The notes under the pieces: generated by a model
Seen by the model: the letters and a program-made list of their open reading frames with translations, nothing else
The model's database searches: none
What the model was told of the DNA's origin: nothing
Shown here: one piece after another, positions 6,443-32,037 of the stretch
Position numbering within the stretch: position 1 is the stretch's first letter
Layout of the letters: each line of letters begins with the position of its first letter
Program-made: the position numbers and the translations under genes
Assembly (NCBI GenBank): GCA_019745365.1
Contig: JAIETI010000018.1
Location: 4,811-68,810 of the forward strand
Length of the DNA stretch: 64,000 nucleotides
From: Gemmatimonadaceae bacterium
GTDB taxonomy: Bacteria; Gemmatimonadota; Gemmatimonadetes; Gemmatimonadales; Gemmatimonadaceae
Reading direction: 5' to 3'

Positions 6443-6931
6443 GTGAGTATCCGCGTCGGCATCGGCTACGACTCCCATCGCTTCGTTCCCGGCGATGGGG
6501 TGCTGTTGGGTGGCGTGACGATCCCGGCCCCTGTGCGGTGCACCGGTCACAGCGATGCGGACGCGGTCGCGCACGCCGTGACCGATGCGATCCTGGGTGG
6601 CGCCGGCCTCGGAGATATCGGCGAGATGTTCCCCGATACAGCGGCCGAGAACAAGGGACGCGACTCGATGGCGATGCTCGCGCTCGCGGTGGCCCGCTGC
6701 GCGGCGGCAGGATGGTACCCACAGCAGGTCGATGTCACCGTCATCTGTGAATCGCCGAAGATCGGCCCGCATCGCAGCGCGATCCGTCAGCGCCTCGCGG
6801 AGGTGCTCCGTGTGAATGCGGATGCGACGATGGTGAAGGGAAAGACCAACGAGGGGATGGGGTGGATCGGCCGCGGTGAGGGGGTGGCGGTGATCGCCGT
6901 CGCGACGCTCGCTGAGGGGCCGCGTTCGTGA
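6443..6931 (+). CDS. ispF: 2-C-methyl-D-erythritol 2,4-cyclodiphosphate synthase
   Basis: 162 aa with IGYDSHRF, GHSDADAVAHAVTDAILG and the DIGEMFPDT motifs. Confidence 0.95.
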   Translation: MSIRVGIGYDSHRFVPGDGVLLGGVTIPAPVRCTGHSDADAVAHAVTDAILGGAGLGDIGEMFPDTAAENKGRDSMAMLALAVARCAAAGWYPQQVDVTVICESPKIGPHRSAIRQRLAEVLRVNADATMVKGKTNEGMGWIGRGEGVAVIAVATLAEGPRS

Positions 6932-13349: not shown

Positions 13350-14149
13350 TGACGCGCTTTCCTACCGACCGGCTCTTTCTGATTGCAGGGCCCTGCGTCA
13401 TCGAACGGGACGCGTTGCTGCTGCAGGTGGGGGAGCATCTCGCGCGTCTGGCCGAGCGCGTCCCCGGTGGCGTGATCTTCAAGGCGAGCTTCGACAAGGC
13501 GAATCGCAGTAACGCGGGCGCCTATCGGGGGCCGGGGATCGACGAGGGGCTCGCGGCGCTCGATCGCGTGCGCACGGCGACGGGCCTTCCGATTCTCACT
13601 GATGTGCATCTCCCCGAGCACTGCGAGGCGGCGGCGCAGGTGGCCGATGTGCTGCAGATCCCCGCCTTCCTCTGCCGGCAGACCGACCTCCTCGAAGCGG
13701 CCGGGCGGACCGGGAAACCGGTGAACGTGAAGAAGGGGCAGTTCCTCCACCCCGAGGGGATGCGTGGCGCGGTTGCGAAGGTGCGGGCGGCGGGGCCGAG
13801 TGAGGTGGCGGTCACGGAACGCGGCACCTTCTTCGGGTATGGGGACCTCGTGGTGGACATGCGTGGTATCCCGCGGATGCGCGCGGCCTGTGATGCCCCG
13901 GTGATCTTCGACGCGACCCACTCGGTGCAGCAGCCGGGGCTGGGAAGCGGTGGTGCCTCTGGGGGCGTGCGTGAGATGATCCCGACGCTCACCATGGCGG
14001 CGCTCGCGGCGGGCGTGGATGGCCTCTTTCTCGAGACCCATCCCGACCCCGCGACCGCGCCGAGCGATGGGCCGAACATGATCCCGCTCGCCGAGTTGGA
14101 TGCGCTGATCGATCGCGCACTCGCCATCTGGAGCGCGGCGCGCCGATGA
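13349..14149 (+). CDS. kdsA: 3-deoxy-8-phosphooctulonate synthase (KDO8P synthase)
   Basis: [30 protein letters not shown] and [10 protein letters not shown] motifs. The ATG overlaps the pyrG TGA (TGATG). The 5' part of track ORF 13205.. is an out-of-gene extension. Confidence 0.95.
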
Positions 14150-14745
14150 CCCAACGGATCGACCCCGCCGTCGCCGCCCGCATCCGACTCGTCGTGTTCG
14201 ACGTGGACGGGGTGATGACCGATGGTGGGATCTACCTCGGCGCGACCGGCGTCGCGGGCAGCGCCCCGATCGAACTCAAGCGGTATGACATCCAGGACGG
14301 CCTCGGCGTGCTGTTGTTGCGGCAGGCCGGGCTGCTCGTGGCGATCATCACCGGGCGGGTCTCGGAGAGCGTGCGGCTGCGCGCCCAAGAGCTGAAGGTC
14401 GATGAGTTGGTGCAGGACAAGCATGCGCGGAAGCTCGCGGCGCTTACGCGCCTGCTCGATGCGCGCGGCCTCACGCCCGAGGAAGTCGCCTTCGTCGGTG
14501 ACGACTTTCCCGACGCGGGCCCGATGCGGATGGTGGGGCTCCCCGTCGCGGTCGGCAACGCGGTCCCGGAGATCAAGGCGATGGCGCAGGTGACACTCAC
14601 GCGCACCGGAGGGCACGGCGCGGTGCGTGAGTTCGCCGAGCTCCTCCTGAGCGCCCGGGGCGAGTGGGTCACCCAGTGGGAGCGCTACGTCGCGGACCGC
14701 TCGGCGCTCGATGGCGCGGAGCCGCGCACGGCGGGGCGCGCATGA
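14146..14745 (+). CDS. kdsC: KDO 8-phosphate phosphatase (HAD-IIIA)
   Basis: 199 aa with the [15 protein letters not shown] motif I and [10 protein letters not shown] motif. Follows kdsA with an ATGA overlap. Confidence 0.85.
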
Positions 14746-26450: not shown

Positions 26451-27281
26451 GTGATCGCCGCCGGTGCGCCGTTCTGGAAGATGTCGGGGTCGGGAAACGA
26501 CTTCGTCTTTTTTGACGCCCGGAACGGACTCGATCTCACCGCGTGGCCACCGGAGCGGATCCAAGCCATCTGCGCCGCCCACACCGGGGTCGGCGCCGAC
26601 GGGATCGTGCTGCTCACGACCGACGCGTCACTCCCGCTGCGGATCATCTACTTCAATCGGGATGGCAGTCGGGGCGAGCTCTGCGGGAACGCCTCGCTCT
26701 GTACGGTTCGCCTCGCCGCCGAACTCGGCATCCCCTTCGATGGCGGGGAGCTCCGCTTCGGTACCGATTCGGGGACGGTGACCGGCCGACTCCGGCCCGA
26801 CGATGGCCGTCCCGAGATCGATCTGGGGAGCATCTCGGGGGTCGACTTGACCTCGCCGGCAATCACTCGGCATCCGGAAGAGGCGCAGCTGGGGTTCGCG
26901 TCGGTTGGGGTTCCGCACCTGGTCGTCGTGGTCCCGGACGCCGAAACGGCAGAGCTCCCGGTCCGGGGCCCCGAACTTCGATACCATCTGTCGTTGACCG
27001 CCGGTGCCAACGTGAACTTCGTGAGCCGACGGCCTGAGGGCTGGAGGATCAGAACCTGGGAGCGCGGCGTCGAGGCCGAGACTTTGGCGTGCGGGACCGG
27101 CTGCTGCGCTTCCGCCGCCCTCCTCGCCGCCTGGGGGCTCGCCCCCGGGGAAGGGACCATCCTTCAGGTCGAATCAGGCCGAACGGTACGCGTCCGTCTC
27201 AGATCGACCCCCGACGGCATCGCGCCATCACTGTCAGGGGAGGGCCGTGTGGTTTACACCGGCCAACTAGCCGAACTCTAA
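26451..27281 (+). CDS. dapF: diaminopimelate epimerase
   Basis: 276 aa with FWKMSGSGNDFVFFD, the first catalytic Cys in CGNASLC and the second in ACGTGCCA. Confidence 0.94.
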   Translation: MIAAGAPFWKMSGSGNDFVFFDARNGLDLTAWPPERIQAICAAHTGVGADGIVLLTTDASLPLRIIYFNRDGSRGELCGNASLCTVRLAAELGIPFDGGELRFGTDSGTVTGRLRPDDGRPEIDLGSISGVDLTSPAITRHPEEAQLGFASVGVPHLVVVVPDAETAELPVRGPELRYHLSLTAGANVNFVSRRPEGWRIRTWERGVEAETLACGTGCCASAALLAAWGLAPGEGTILQVESGRTVRVRLRSTPDGIAPSLSGEGRVVYTGQLAEL

Positions 27282-27302
27282 GTCGGCGCCTCACCAGGGT
27301 AG

Positions 27303-27336
27303 TTCCTGTTTTTCCTGTCGTTCCTGTCTCTCCTGT
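27303..27336 (+). repeat. four tandem 9-bp units (T/C)TCCTGTnn, left of the dif-like site
   Basis: TTCCTGT begins at 27303, 27312 and 27321, and CTCCTGT at 27330, an exact 9-bp period. The stretch 27315-27336 is complementary to 27392-27413 at 20 of 22 positions. Confidence 0.9.
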
Positions 27337-27363
27337 GCACAACCCCCCCCTTTCCACATCCCG

Positions 27364-27391
27364 CCTTTACATAATACATATTATAGGCACT
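27364..27391 (-). other. dif: candidate chromosomal dif site (XerC/XerD recombination target)
   Basis: The minus strand reads AGTGCCTATAA-TATGTA-TTATGTAAAGG. From memory this is 20/28 identical to E. coli dif and 22/28 to B. subtilis dif, with the inner ATAA/TTATGT positions fully conserved. It is the only AT-rich patch in the window and lies in the convergent gap where gene orientation flips. Confidence 0.72.
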
Positions 27392-27420
27392 ACAGGAGGG
27401 ACAGGAAAGACAGAGGAGGT
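27392..27420 (-). repeat. three tandem 9-bp units ACAGGAnnn on + (TCCTGT on -), directly abutting the dif-like site
   Basis: ACAGGAGGG starts at 27392, ACAGGAAAG at 27401 and the degenerate ACAGAGGAG at 27410. Same 9-bp period as the left array, in inverted orientation. Confidence 0.85.
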
Positions 27421-27480
27421 GTGGCGGCACTATGGCGCCACACCCCCTATCGTTCTTGTGTGCTCTCGCGATCTCTAGTG

Positions 27481-27513
27481 AGATCTGAAGGGGTGGCGTA
27501 CCCCTTCAGATCT
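27481..27513 (-). terminator. perfect 13-bp stem / 7-nt loop hairpin, likely terminator of the TPR gene (possibly bidirectional)
   Basis: AGATCTGAAGGGG-tggcgta-CCCCTTCAGATCT lies 8 nt beyond the stop of the - strand gene that ends at 27522. There is no clear U-tract on either strand. Confidence 0.5.
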
Positions 27514-27521
27514 GGTGAGCG

Positions 27522-28151
27522 CTAGTTGGACTTTGCGGTGAGTTCGCCGAGGCGGACTCTCGCCTCGGCGGCCACCGACGACTCTTCGTTCGCGGCGAGG
27601 GCCGCCCAGATCTTCTCGGCTTCCGCCTTCTTGCCGGCGGCGACCAGCGCGCGGGCCTGCTCGGCCTTCATGTAGTCCCGGTCGCCCGAGAGCTCCGCCG
27701 CTTCGGCAGCCATGCCGTAGTGCTTCGCGGCCTCTTCGTGCTTCCCCTGATCCTGGTGCGCGGCGGCGATGAGGGCGTGAACGCCGGACTGGAAGTGCTT
27801 CGGGACCTTCGTCCCCTCAAGCGCCTTCAGGCCGTCGGCGTACTTCCCCTGATCGAAGAGCACCTGCGCGAGGAGCATCGACGCCTCGGCACCCCCAGAG
27901 GTGCCCGCGTAGCGGAGCGCGACCTTTCCAAGCTCCTTTTCGGCGAGCGCTGCGTTCCCCGCATCGAACGCCCGAGCGGCCTCGGCGAACGCCGCGTCGG
28001 CGCGATCGGCCTTGATCTGCGCCGAGCGATTCCAGAGGTAGCCCGCCCCGCCGCCCGCCACGAGCACGATGGCAGCGATGCTGAGGTTCCGGCTGTTCTG
28101 GCGGAAGAAGTCGACCCAGCGGTCGGTGTCGAGCGAGCTATCCTGAGACAT
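27522..28151 (-). CDS. membrane-anchored TPR protein (YfgM-like)
   Basis: 209 aa. One N-terminal TM (LSIAAIVLVAGGGAGYLW) is followed by Ala-rich TPR-like helices. Size and layout resemble YfgM. Confidence 0.6.
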   Translation of the reverse strand: MSQDSSLDTDRWVDFFRQNSRNLSIAAIVLVAGGGAGYLWNRSAQIKADRADAAFAEAARAFDAGNAALAEKELGKVALRYAGTSGGAEASMLLAQVLFDQGKYADGLKALEGTKVPKHFQSGVHALIAAAHQDQGKHEEAAKHYGMAAEAAELSGDRDYMKAEQARALVAAGKKAEAEKIWAALAANEESSVAAEARVRLGELTAKSN

Positions 28152-28556: not shown

Positions 28557-30739
28557 CGGAGTCTCAGGCGTTGGAGGCGGAGGGAGTTCACCACGACGCT
28601 CACCGAACTGAGCGCCATCGCCGCGCTCGCAACGCTGGGCGAGAGCGCGAGTCCGGTGCTTGGGAGGAGCACCCCTGCGGCGAGCGGGATCCCGACGACG
28701 TTGTAGCCGAAGGCCCAGCCGAGGTTCTGTCGCATCACACGCATCGCCGCCCGGGCGATCTGGAGCGCGTGCACGGCGCGCACGGGATCGCTCCGCAGGA
28801 GGGCGATGTCGGCGGCGTCGATGGCGATGTCACTCCCACTCCCCATCGCGATCCCGACATCGGCCGCGGCGAGCGCAGGCGCATCATTGATCCCATCGCC
28901 GACCATCGCCACGCGGTGCCCCTCCGCTTGCCAGGCCCGGAGTGCCGCCACCTTCCCTTCTGGGCGGAGATCGGCTTCGACTCGGCGGATTCCGACACGC
29001 GCCGCGAGCGCCTCAGCGACCACGCGGCGGTCCCCGCTCAGGAGCACGACGTCGACCGCCATCGCGCGCGCCGCGCGCACGGCTTCAGTGCTCTCAGCGC
29101 GCACGGTGTCTTCGAGGACGAACGTGCCGGCATGTGCGCCCGCGACGGCCACATGAACGACCGTGTCCGGCGTCGCCGCATCGTCGGGGATGACCACGCC
29201 TCGGCCGGTGAGGAACGCGGACGAACCGAGTGCGATGGCCACGCCGTCCACCATCCCACTCACCCCCTGCCCCGGTCGTGCCCGCACGAGCGAGGCCTCG
29301 CGCGTCTCGGCATTCTCCTCTGCCCCATACGCGGCGATGGCTTTCGCGAGCGGATGCTCGGAGCGACGTGCCAGCGCGGTCGCCTGCGCGAGCACCACCG
29401 CTCGTTCGTGCGCGGCCGCCGCGGTGAACCCGTTGACCGTCGGCGCGCCCATCGTGAGGGTGCCGGTCTTGTCGAACGCGATCAGGTCGATCGTGGCCGC
29501 CCGCTGCAGGGGGATGGCTCCGCGGAAGAGGATCCCCGCCTGTGCTGCACGACCCGTGGCGACCATCACGGCGGCAGGAACCGCCAGCCCCATGGCACAC
29601 GGACAGGCGATGATCAGCACGGCGATCATCGACCGCAGCCCCGTGGCCCAGTCGTGTGCGATGCCCCCCCAGGCCACGAGCGTGAGCAGCGCGATCGCTG
29701 CCACCGCAGGGACGAATGACGCCGAGACGCGGTCCGCGAGTTCCTGGATCGGTGCCCGTGCACCTTGGGCATCACGGACCGCAGCGATGATGCGCGAGAG
29801 GACCGTCGCCTCGCCGACGCGCACCACGCGCAGGCGCAGCGCGCCGTCGACCGCGACGCTCCCACCGACCACCGCGTCGCCGGGCCGCTTCAGTACGGGG
29901 ATCGGTTCGCCGGTCAGCATCGCCTCGTCCACCCCGGACTCGCCCTCGAGAACGACGGCGTCAACCGGGATGCTCTCGCCGGGCACGACGCGGACGACAT
30001 CGTCGATGCGAATCTGCGAGAGCGCGACACGCTGCTCGACCCCGTCGCGCTCCACGAGCGCCTCGGACGGACGCAACGCGCCCAAGCGCGCGATGGCCGA
30101 GGTCGCCGCGCCGCGCGCCCGCGCGTCGAGCGCGCGCCCGAGCTGCACGAATCCAAGGATAAAGAGGATCGCCTCGGCGTAGTTGCTGTCCATCGCCATC
30201 ATCCCGCGGCGATCCACCGCGAGCGAGAACGCGGACGCGAGCCACGCCGCGCTGGTCCCCAACGCGATGAGCACGTTCATGTCGGCGCCGCCGTGCCGCA
30301 GCGCATTCCACGCCCGACGGTAGAATCCGCGCCCCGAGGTCAGCATCGCGGCGCTCGCGAGGGCGAGCAGGATCCAGGGCGTGCTGGGCGCGTGCATCGC
30401 AGTCATCGCGAGCCCCATCGCCACCGCGCCAGCGCTGAGCAGGACGATCGCGTCACGTCGCGCCGTGCGGAACTCCGAGGTGCCGTCATCCACGGACGCG
30501 TCGTCAGGGATGAGCGCCGACGCGCCGTATCCTGCGGCTTCTACTGCGGCCACCAGCGTCGCGACCGCAGGCGGCTGGGCCGTGGGATGCACCCGCGCTT
30601 CGTGCATCAGCAGGTTGACCTCTGCACTCGCGACCCCCGAAACGCGTCGCAACGCCTGCGTGACGTGCGACTGACAGGCCGCGCAGGTCATCCCGGAGAT
30701 CTGGAGCACGATCGGACGTTCCGCCGGTACCGTTGTCAT
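28553..30739 (-). CDS. copA: copper-translocating P1B-type ATPase
   Basis: 728 aa with an N-terminal HMA domain ([11 protein letters not shown]), the CPC motif (CPCAMGLA), DKTGTLT, and the [10 protein letters not shown] hinge. Confidence 0.95.
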
Positions 30740-30765: not shown

Positions 30766-31111
30766 TCTCAGGAAGGCCGGTTCACGAGCGTTCCCGGCCA
30801 CGCGTGCCCGAGCGCTCGTGCAGGCGTGGACCGTCTCGCTCCTCTCACCGCTCTCTGCGAGCGGCCGCTCCAGCGCGCCGGTATCCTCGGGAGAGTACCC
30901 AGTCCCCTGCCTGTGCGCCGTGAGACCCGTGCCGTTGCCCGCGTAGGCACGCATGCCCGGCCATGGGCTGAGGCCTCGCGCCGCTCCGGCGGTGTTGCCG
31001 TTCCTGCCGCTCGGATTCCCCGCTTGTCCCGATCGCTCCTCGGCGCGGAGCTCGTGCGCGCCCTCCACGCATTCTTCGCGTGGCAACGCCTCACACCATA
31101 GCTTCCACCTG

Positions 31112-31960
31112 ATGAACCGCCCACTCGACGCCGCGCAGTCCGCCATCACGGAGAACCGCCGTGTGCACGACCGTGCGGCGGCGCGGTATGATGCGGGGCA
31201 CCCCGAGATCTTCAACGACGTCGAGCAAGCGCGCTTAGCCGCGACGATCCCGCGCGTGCTGGCGGAGGTGCGCGATGCCCAAGGCCCGCCTCGCGTCCTC
31301 GACGTCGGCGCGGGCACGGGGAATCTCACGCGTCACTTCCTCGCGGCGGGGGCGCACGTCACGGCGGCGGACCTGTCCGAAGGGATGCTCGCAATCGTCC
31401 GGGGTCGGTTCGCACACACCGGACGGTTGGAGACGCTGCCGCTCGACGGCGTCGACCTCCGGGGCATCCCCGATGCGACGTTCGACGTCGTCGCGGCCTA
31501 CAGCGTGCTCCATCATGTCCCGGATTACCTCGCGCTGGTGCGCGACATGGTCCGCGTGACCCGCCCCGGTGGCGTGGTGTATCTCGACCACGAACGGGAT
31601 GACAGCGCGTGGAGCCCGTCGAGCGCGTACCTAGCGTTTCTTGTCGACGCGGTAGTCTTTCCACCACGCCGGTGGACGCGCTATCTGAACCCGAAGAAGT
31701 ACTGGAACCGCGTGCGCCCGCTCTTGGTCTGGCAACGCTGGCGGAATCCGCGCTGGATGCCGGAGGGGGACCTCCACATCTGGCCCGACGACCACATCGA
31801 GTGGGCGAAGATCCGCGACGTGTTGGCTGCGTCCGGGGCGGCACCCATCATCGATGAGGCGTATCTCCTCTTCGAACGCCGCTATCAGCGCGACGCGTGG
31901 GAGCAGCACCGTACTCGCACCGCCGACACGCGGATGCTCGTCGCGCGCCGCACCACCTGA
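31112..31960 (+). CDS. class I SAM-dependent methyltransferase
   Basis: The VLDVGAGTGNLTRHF motif I is followed by an acidic loop (AADLSEGML). The ATG at 31112 removes the Arg/Pro-rich 5' extension of the track ORF. This is the only + strand gene right of 27.5 kb. Confidence 0.8.
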   Translation: MNRPLDAAQSAITENRRVHDRAAARYDAGHPEIFNDVEQARLAATIPRVLAEVRDAQGPPRVLDVGAGTGNLTRHFLAAGAHVTAADLSEGMLAIVRGRFAHTGRLETLPLDGVDLRGIPDATFDVVAAYSVLHHVPDYLALVRDMVRVTRPGGVVYLDHERDDSAWSPSSAYLAFLVDAVVFPPRRWTRYLNPKKYWNRVRPLLVWQRWRNPRWMPEGDLHIWPDDHIEWAKIRDVLAASGAAPIIDEAYLLFERRYQRDAWEQHRTRTADTRMLVARRTT

Positions 31961-31963
31961 CAG

Positions 31964-32037
<74 letters not shown>

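Follow-up and report, generated by a model that had tools for sequence, protein, structure and literature searches.

We analyzed a 64,000-nucleotide stretch of the genome of a Gemmatimonadaceae bacterium (contig JAIETI010000018.1; hereafter, the window), in which a dif-like site with XerD- and XerC-side arms is bracketed by two short arrays of a 9-bp tandem repeat. We found that the site is a genuine chromosomal dif at the replication terminus of this bacterium, and that the arrays are a private, derived feature of its lineage. They lie outside the conserved apparatus of Xer recombinases, FtsK and FtsK-orienting polar sequences (KOPS), are very unlikely to be a mobile element, and are not a polar genome-wide motif. 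Our preferred explanation, which we hold tentatively, is that the arrays arose in situ by slippage, were copied in inverted orientation and are a mutational by-product. Judging from the compared sequences, the conserved accessory-like element at these dif loci would be a phased DnaA-box-like 9-mer, TTNTCCACA, and not the arrays. The site and its flanks are organized as follows, the dif coordinates being based on our own alignment to E. coli dif:

27364-27391, + strand: dif, 28 bp, made up of a XerD-side arm, a centre and a XerC-side arm
27364-27374, + strand: XerD-side arm, CCTTTACATAA
27375-27380, + strand: dif central region, TACATA
27381-27391, + strand: XerC-side arm, TTATAGGCACT
27303-27336, + strand: left array, four 9-bp-phased units, TTCCTGT at 27303, 27312 and 27321 and CTCCTGT at 27330
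27392-27418, - strand: right array, three units, read on the + strand as ACAGGAGGG at 27392, ACAGGAAAG at 27401 and ACAGAGGAG at 27410
27315-27336 and 27392-27413: arms of a 22-nt inverted repeat, 20/22 (91%) complementary, with 55 nt between the arms, enclosing a C8 tract, a DnaA-box-like 9-mer and dif

The alignment satisfies the 11-6-11 dif architecture, with CCTTTACATAA-TACATA-TTATAGGCACT in the window matched to ATTTAACATAA-TATACA-TTATGCGCACC in the reverse-complemented E. coli dif. The 25-nt core is present in a single copy, and no second dif-like site was found in the 64-kb window. GC skew stays positive over roughly the first 26 kb, switches at 26-28 kb and is negative farther to the right. 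The octamer GGGNAGGG, which is the FtsK-orienting KOPS of E. coli, occurs 17 times pointing toward dif and once pointing away. Its + strand copies span 101-27237 and its - strand copies 29265-62681, and polarity flips at dif, between the last + strand copy at 27237 and the first - strand copy at 29265. Across 515 kb around related GC-rich dif loci, 95 copies point toward dif and 8 away. Nearly all of the 48 called open reading frames (ORFs) are co-directional with replication, on the + strand left of dif and on the - strand right of it, the exceptions being one ORF on each side (13522-14616 and 30953-31960). Since the GC-skew flip, the polarity of GGGNAGGG and the converging genes agree, and since the same core lies in the dapF/TPR_21 spacer of distant relatives, the dif-like core reported in a preliminary description of this DNA is a real dif at the terminus. 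The same description had noted a perfect TATAAT on the minus strand (27385-27380) alongside its suggestion of divergent small RNAs. The hexamer is there, but it belongs to the AT-rich dif core and is intrinsic to all dif cores of this type among the related loci compared. Another octamer, GGTGCTCG, is the most skewed of the window (25 copies toward dif, 0 away; 98:25 across related loci) and may reflect codon or strand bias or be a Chi- or KOPS-like signal.

Related loci were collected in two ways. A scan for the exact core TACATAATACATATTATAGG, with one genome per species, returned 13 loci, of which 10 were GC-rich, and all 10 of these were labelled Gemmatimonadota. A scan of metagenome contigs with a degenerate core returned at least 120 stretches. 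Removal of duplicates left 90 GC-rich loci (GC of at least 0.55) and ~40 low-GC loci among the matches listed. All locus counts given here are counts among the matches listed, the loci were selected by the exact core pattern, and the metagenome loci carry no taxonomy. In this sample, the window shares its core with 10 genomes of Gemmatimonadota and with some 80 metagenome contigs of high GC content. Relatives whose DapF is 54-59% identical to that of the window have the gene order glycosyltransferase, dapF, spacer, TPR_21, with the same core in the spacer. The nearest DapF sequences are 57-60% identical to the window's, and its nearest relative is thus distant.

The geometry given in the preliminary description was confirmed. 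Tandem Repeats Finder reported a period of 9 on both sides of dif, a repeat finder recovered the 22-bp inverted repeat with its 20 of 22 complementary positions, and the C8 tract is present at 27343-27350. The four left units, on the + strand, and the three right units, on the - strand, all point at the core, and the right array directly adjoins the XerC-side arm. All units were found at the positions described, but the third right unit (27410, ACAGAGGAG) is degenerate, with ACAGAG in place of ACAGGA. The two-unit pattern YCCTGTN3YCCTGT (at most 1 mismatch) occurs 5 times in the 64 kb, every time at the dif locus, against an expectation of 0.44, and a count of 5 was reached in 0 of 100 shuffles.

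No comparable structure was found at related dif loci. As a measure of bracketing we took the highest-scoring ungapped inverted repeat that the two 100-nt flanks of the core can form with each other, and 400 mismatched left/right flank pairs of related loci served as the null. The window scored 16, whereas the null had a mean of 6.7 and a maximum of 11; none of the 77 other GC-rich loci listed rose above the null (mean 6.6 versus 6.7). Arrays called by Tandem Repeats Finder (score of at least 40) had a density of 0.28 per kb within 200 nt of dif versus 0.21 per kb elsewhere in the same loci, and their units (CACAGAGA, GGTGACCTGAGC, GGAGGAGT and CTTCCGG) are unrelated between loci. The flanks of other dif loci showed no enrichment of ACAGGA/TCCTGT. 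The six closest dapF-linked loci (L006, L015, L260, L262, L265 and L004) all have dif and no arrays, and in L006, L015, L260, L262 and L265 the DnaA-box-like 9-mer is present beside the array-less dif. At least three phased ACAG units occur only in the window and in loci L001 and L007 among the loci listed; their periods (9, 8 and 10 bp, respectively) and positions differ, and the three cases only weakly suggest a common theme of ACAG-type arrays around dif. The preliminary description had named three outcomes that would count against its readings, and two of them were found: relatives have the core without arrays, and the array motif is not polar.

Some of these loci have repeats of their own. 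L001 carries, at 6849-6921 between dapF and dif, four copies of CACAGAGA followed after ~14 nt by an inverted three-unit copy. This is a 4 + 3 inverted tandem architecture like that of the window, but with an 8-bp period and with both arms left of dif. In L007 (~2459-2487; the contig is shared with L037), the ACAG-type units ACAGGTGACG, ACAGAGAATG and ACAGAAAGCG adjoin the XerC arm at 10-bp spacing; they sit where the window has its right array, and there is no left-hand counterpart. L034 has three copies of GGAGGAGT at ~1797-1821, on the minus strand of that locus and immediately upstream of its distal box; the reverse complement of this unit, CTCCTCCAC, is box-like, and a reverse box has apparently been amplified by slippage.

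The convergent orientation of the arrays had led to the suggestion that they bind a polar factor, and so orient or load FtsK or trap replication forks. Both arrays do point at dif, and FtsK-orienting and fork-trap systems are known to be arranged in inverted orientation around termini. However, the motif does not behave accordingly. TTCCTGT occurs only once in the 64 kb outside the arrays, and in 515 kb around the 90 related dif loci listed its skew is 31:10 toward dif, which ranks 1096 among 5179 7-mers. The frequent occurrence and dif-centred flip in strand skew that mark KOPS were thus seen for TTCCTGT neither in the window nor in these 515 kb. A KOPS-like role of the arrays was rejected, as the motif is rare and of ordinary skew while GGGNAGGG is strongly polar, already supplying a polarity that flips at dif. 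Within the window, the array motif is restricted to the dif flanks and is not dispersed in the manner of Ter sites, and known Ter sites are dispersed 20-23-bp sequences and not 9-bp tandem units. Because the arrays are lineage-private and TTCCTGT is non-polar, the FtsK-orienting reading is refuted, the fork-trap reading is unsupported, and a polar function of either kind is very improbable.

It is even less likely that the arrays are the remnant or the ends of a mobile element, such as a miniature inverted-repeat transposable element (MITE) with subterminal repeats or the scar of an integrative element that exploits Xer recombination. Inverted arrays of short repeats do resemble multi-site transposon ends. 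On the other hand, the array unit, considered as a repeat of the MITE or repetitive extragenic palindromic (REP) type, is single copy in the 64 kb and occurs in none of the relatives, and the window has only one dif-like site. Moreover, dif and the 9-mer beside it are ancestral in the syntenic spacer, and the ORFs scanned, which extend from ~16 kb on the left of dif to 21 kb on its right, include no integrase, transposase or recombinase gene.

The feature that related loci do share next to dif is the 9-mer, which the preliminary description does not mention even though it falls within the interval described there. A sequence within one mismatch of TTNTCCACA is present on the XerD side, on the same strand, in 80 of the 89 GC-rich loci listed and in 0 of the 38 low-GC loci listed. 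Counted back from TACATAA, the boxes end at fixed distances, 33 of them at exactly 9-10 nt and 66 at exactly 19-20 nt. In 47 loci only the distal box is present, in 19 both, and in 12 only the proximal one, giving one or two direct copies ~10 bp apart that are always oriented toward the core. A reverse copy lies 30-50 nt upstream of the forward box in 13 loci. Away from these positions the motif is at chance level, both for exact matches in 515 kb (0 toward dif, 3 away) and for one-mismatch matches in the whole window (14 versus 13 expected). The corresponding features of the window are these:

27350-27358, + strand: DnaA-box-like 9-mer CTTTCCACA in the proximal ('box B') position, ending 9 nt before the TACATAA of the XerD arm
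27334-27342, - strand: reverse DnaA-box-like 9-mer TTGTGCACA, with the palindrome TGTGCACA inside it, overlapping the fourth unit of the left array
27343-27350, + strand: C8 homopolymer, where most relatives carry the distal box (box A), between the reverse and the forward box-like motifs

The window's CTTTCCACA differs from the DnaA-box consensus TTWTNCACA by 1 mismatch, and the family-wide motif, TT(T/C/A)(T/C)CCACA, matches that consensus at 7-9 of 9 positions. This resemblance is what suggests that the 9-mer may be a DnaA box. The preliminary description had compared the arrays with the accessory sequences of plasmid cer and psi sites, a reading that found no support: no related dif locus has the arrays, and the conserved accessory-like element would be TTNTCCACA on the XerD side. 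We can imagine a combined arrangement, in which Gemmatimonadota dif has a XerD-side accessory module of one or two helically phased boxes that is elaborated here by the 4 + 3 TCCTGT iterons. In such an arrangement, the iterons would be binding sites for an oligomerising factor peculiar to the lineage, which would position, insulate or license the reaction of Xer with FtsK. A chromosomal dif with protein-binding accessory arrays on either flank would be of a kind not known to have been described. We regard this as speculative and rather improbable. Neither iterons nor DnaA-box-like motifs next to dif were described in the literature we searched, including a paper on dif prediction (PMC3025954).

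Two observations concern the spacing and placement of these boxes. Tracts of the C8 type are prone to slippage, which would alter the spacing between the left array and the segment containing the box and dif. In addition, three GC-rich loci (L100, L126 and L132) have no left-hand box and instead carry a reverse box, TGTGGAAAA, ~15 nt right of the XerC arm; it lies inside the loop of a CCTGGGG...CCCCAGG hairpin and points at the core, and these loci may belong to a different lineage.

In our preferred explanation of the arrays, replication slippage would have grown a short tandem repeat from the ancestral XerC-side flank (...CAGGAAGAC... in the closest relatives). This repeat would then have been copied, inverted, to the far side of the segment that contains the box and dif, the likely route being strand or template switching where the two forks meet. 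Such switching is known to create, 'perfect' and homogenise quasipalindromes. In the closest relatives, the flank just beyond the XerC arm (GCCAGGAAGACGGAC or similar) aligns with ACAGGAAAGACAGAG of the window, which makes it plausible that the right array expanded in situ out of the ancestral flank; GCCAGGAAGAC, at the right-array position in these relatives, is a possible seed. Relative to the same loci, the window has gained the left array as inserted sequence after the dapF stop codon and before the box region. The inverted arms are more alike (20/22) than the tandem units inside one arm. Moreover, unit variants follow the same order in both arrays, TTCCTGT and then CTCCTGT nearest dif, which argues that one array is an inverted copy of the other and not an independent expansion. 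Idiosyncratic slippage arrays in this spacer have precedents in the four CACAGAGA units of L001 with their inverted three-unit copy and in the three GGAGGAGT units of L034. The one certain physical consequence of the repeat is that its arms can pair, yielding a stem of 22 bp either in single-stranded DNA or in RNA that reads through from the convergent dapF and TPR_21 genes. A dedicated role of the arrays in dimer resolution seems unlikely, and the evidence points to a private structure that is probably incidental.

Several observations weigh against the slippage explanation. The left 9-mers are AGT-TCCTGT, TTT-TCCTGT, CGT-TCCTGT and CTC-TCCTGT, and those on the right, read on the other strand, are CCC-TCCTGT, CTT-TCCTGT and CTC-CTCTGT; the hexamer TCCTGT is thus intact in 6 of 7 units. 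Between units of the left array, differences amount to 0.67 per site in the spacers, which is near saturation, and to 0.00 in the hexamer. Over both arrays, the three spacer columns hold 8 of the 10 deviations from the column consensus (p = 0.0125 if any register is allowed, p = 0.0015 for the fixed register), although this test counts related units as independent and is suggestive only. An invariant hexamer with scrambled spacers would be the pattern of selected binding sites, unlike that of a young minisatellite. Furthermore, the right array stops precisely at the edge of the XerC arm, and the box and dif are precisely what the inverted repeat encloses, an arrangement that looks designed. 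Mutations that duplicate a sequence in inverted orientation over a distance of 55 bp are also rare. Finally, because the nearest relatives are distant, the absence of arrays from their dif loci is compatible with recent lineage-specific selection.

These features fit a different possibility, namely a lineage-specific iteron array in which an oligomerising, sequence-specific protein would occupy TCCTGT hexamers at 9-bp spacing. Such a protein could be, for example, of the ribbon-helix-helix or winged-helix type, coating contiguous 7-9-bp repeats. It would form two short, oppositely oriented filaments that bracket the box and dif, and these could be roadblocks to transcription or translocases, or insulators from them; they could also offer the Xer complex an accessory platform. 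In addition to the invariant hexamer and scrambled spacers, this proposal accounts for the strict 9-bp phase over 4 + 3 units, symmetric, convergent and ending at the XerC arm, and it can point to the three 10-bp-spaced ACAG-type units that adjoin the XerC arm of L007 and to the ACAGAGA-type arrays in the same spacer of L001. Against it, the arrays are found in none of the ~90 related dif loci listed, the motif appears nowhere else in the 64 kb as an array, no candidate binding protein is encoded among the nearby genes scanned, the periods of the three loci with ACAG-type repeats differ (8, 9 and 10 bp), and the hexamer statistic has the weakness just described. Because of the hexamer/spacer pattern, and because both mismatches between the inverted arms fall within spacers, we keep it as the main rival to slippage, less probable but with a real chance of being correct.

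The inverted repeat could also act at the level of RNA. Transcripts of dapF (+) and TPR_21 (-) would enter the spacer, where the arrays could pair as a long-range 22-bp stem and, together with two adjacent hairpins, stabilise 3' ends or block convergent transcription across dif. Folding of 27282-27521 pairs the arrays on both strands (z = -7.6 for + and -5.8 for -), one of the two arm mismatches becomes a G-U pair on the + strand, and hairpins lie directly 3' of dapF in L001 and L004. The single-stranded DNA fold also pairs the arms (z = -3.4). However, a 55-nt loop is far from terminator geometry, a consensus scan found no terminator-like site above chance (one weak site at 27295-27308), no Rfam family matched, and a bracketing stem was present in 0 of the 77 relatives listed. 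That both arm mismatches are in spacers also argues for a constraint on the motif rather than on pairing. Two local hairpins are better candidates for a role at 3' ends than a stem formed by the arrays, and we consider the latter improbable:

27414-27448: GC-rich hairpin with 16-nt arms and a 3-nt loop, from the repeat finder and folds; a candidate 3' end structure for dapF read-through
27481-27513: perfect 14-bp hairpin directly past the TPR_21 stop codon; a candidate terminator of this - strand gene

Two further suggestions of the preliminary description, a cruciform that presents dif and divergent small RNAs that titrate CsrA through ACAGGA, appear extremely unlikely. An inverted repeat exists, AGGA is contained in ACAGGA, and the core includes TATAAT. 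The 55-nt spacer, however, disfavours cruciform extrusion from duplex DNA, XerCD needs duplex dif, and nothing else speaks for a cruciform. As for small RNAs, the TATAAT is accounted for by the dif core, a consensus scan found 0 promoter-like sites, and no small-RNA family was matched. At gathering thresholds, the only Rfam match of the window is a tRNA at 31964-32037, and a permissive scan of 27200-27600 gave only sub-threshold noise of the microRNA-hairpin kind.

The dif site lies between two convergent genes:

26451-27281, + strand: dapF (diaminopimelate epimerase) ORF, Pfam DAP_epimerase 9e-33, 100% identity to a protein of a Gemmatimonadaceae metagenome-assembled genome; converges from the left
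27522-28151, - strand: TPR_21 (YfgM-like) gene, Pfam TPR_21 2e-11, syntenic in L001, L004, L006 and L262; converges from the right

Further neighbours are housekeeping genes, with kdsB, pyrG, lptCAB, rpoN, glycosyltransferases and YfhO on the left and csoR, copA, surE, gpsA, plsY and der on the right. In the window and in many relatives (L001, L004, L006, L015 and L262), dif is directly 3' of dapF and before the TPR_21 gene. In E. coli, dapF and xerC are transcribed together, and the recurrence of a link between dapF and Xer, as a dapF-adjacent dif here and as co-transcription of dapF and xerC there, is curious.

Three further readings of the arrays were considered and rejected. An assembly chimera at dif was dismissed because the order dapF, dif, TPR_21 is conserved in relatives. 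Antisense ORFs that would make the arrays coding (27199-27357 and 27278-27430) coincide in part with dapF or dif and lack credibility as genes. A viral origin was also discarded: three tandem TCCTGTN3 units gave more than 120 matches in viral contigs, several with many copies per contig, but these read, untranslated, as coding repeats of 9-bp period for collagen-like (Gly-X-Thr) sequence and are irrelevant.

Chromosomal dif is usually regarded as needing XerCD, FtsK and KOPS only. A function of the arrays, if they had one, would make this the first chromosomal dif known to be flanked by iterons. The site resembles the E. coli-type XerCD-FtsK-KOPS system in its single-copy, 28-bp 11-6-11 site, its GC-skew switch, its convergent genes and the orientation of GGGNAGGG toward dif from both sides. 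It differs in its private 9-bp arrays and in the phased TTNTCCACA boxes found on the XerD side of nearly all Gemmatimonadota-type loci.

As in plasmid cer and psi, there is extra DNA beside the Xer core that could bind accessory proteins. In cer and psi, however, this DNA is ~180 bp long, is confined to the XerC side, is bound by PepA together with ArgR or ArcA, and is found on plasmids, whereas the window's arrays are 27-34 bp each, flank a chromosomal dif on both sides and are unconserved; in sides, length and conservation at related loci, they are unlike cer/psi-type accessory sequences. The arm-type sites of lambda-like attP share the architecture alone, inverted tandem repeats on both sides of a tyrosine-recombinase core. 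Such sites depend on an integrase whose N-terminal domain binds them, and XerC and XerD have no domain of this kind; the window's spacing is 9 bp and not 10-11 bp, and no integrase gene was found among the ORFs scanned around its dif. The sponge RNAs CsrB and RsmZ have no counterpart here, since neither a promoter-like site nor Rfam matches beyond sub-threshold noise were found.

Ribbon-helix-helix operators and centromeres, such as the omega heptads, the 8-bp repeats of ParG and the metboxes of MetJ, are similar in having contiguous 7-9-bp units, direct and inverted, with a conserved core and a free spacer. The window differs in having only 7 units, in its location at the terminus and in that no such protein was identified. 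Quasipalindromes made by template switching share the imperfect inverted repeat with arms that resemble each other more closely than the tandem units do, but here the arms are themselves tandem arrays and the spacer between them holds an essential site.

The phased box is a more promising lead than the arrays alone. Like DnaA boxes and non-origin DnaA-box clusters, it matches TTWTNCACA and occurs as one or two direct copies ~10 bp apart, and it could link DnaA and the terminus. Because dif is usually thought to need XerCD, FtsK and KOPS alone, a phylum-wide, helically phased motif beside XerD would, if true, be a testable new component of dimer resolution. What sets it apart from known DnaA boxes is its place at the terminus and its constant spacing to the XerD arm of dif.

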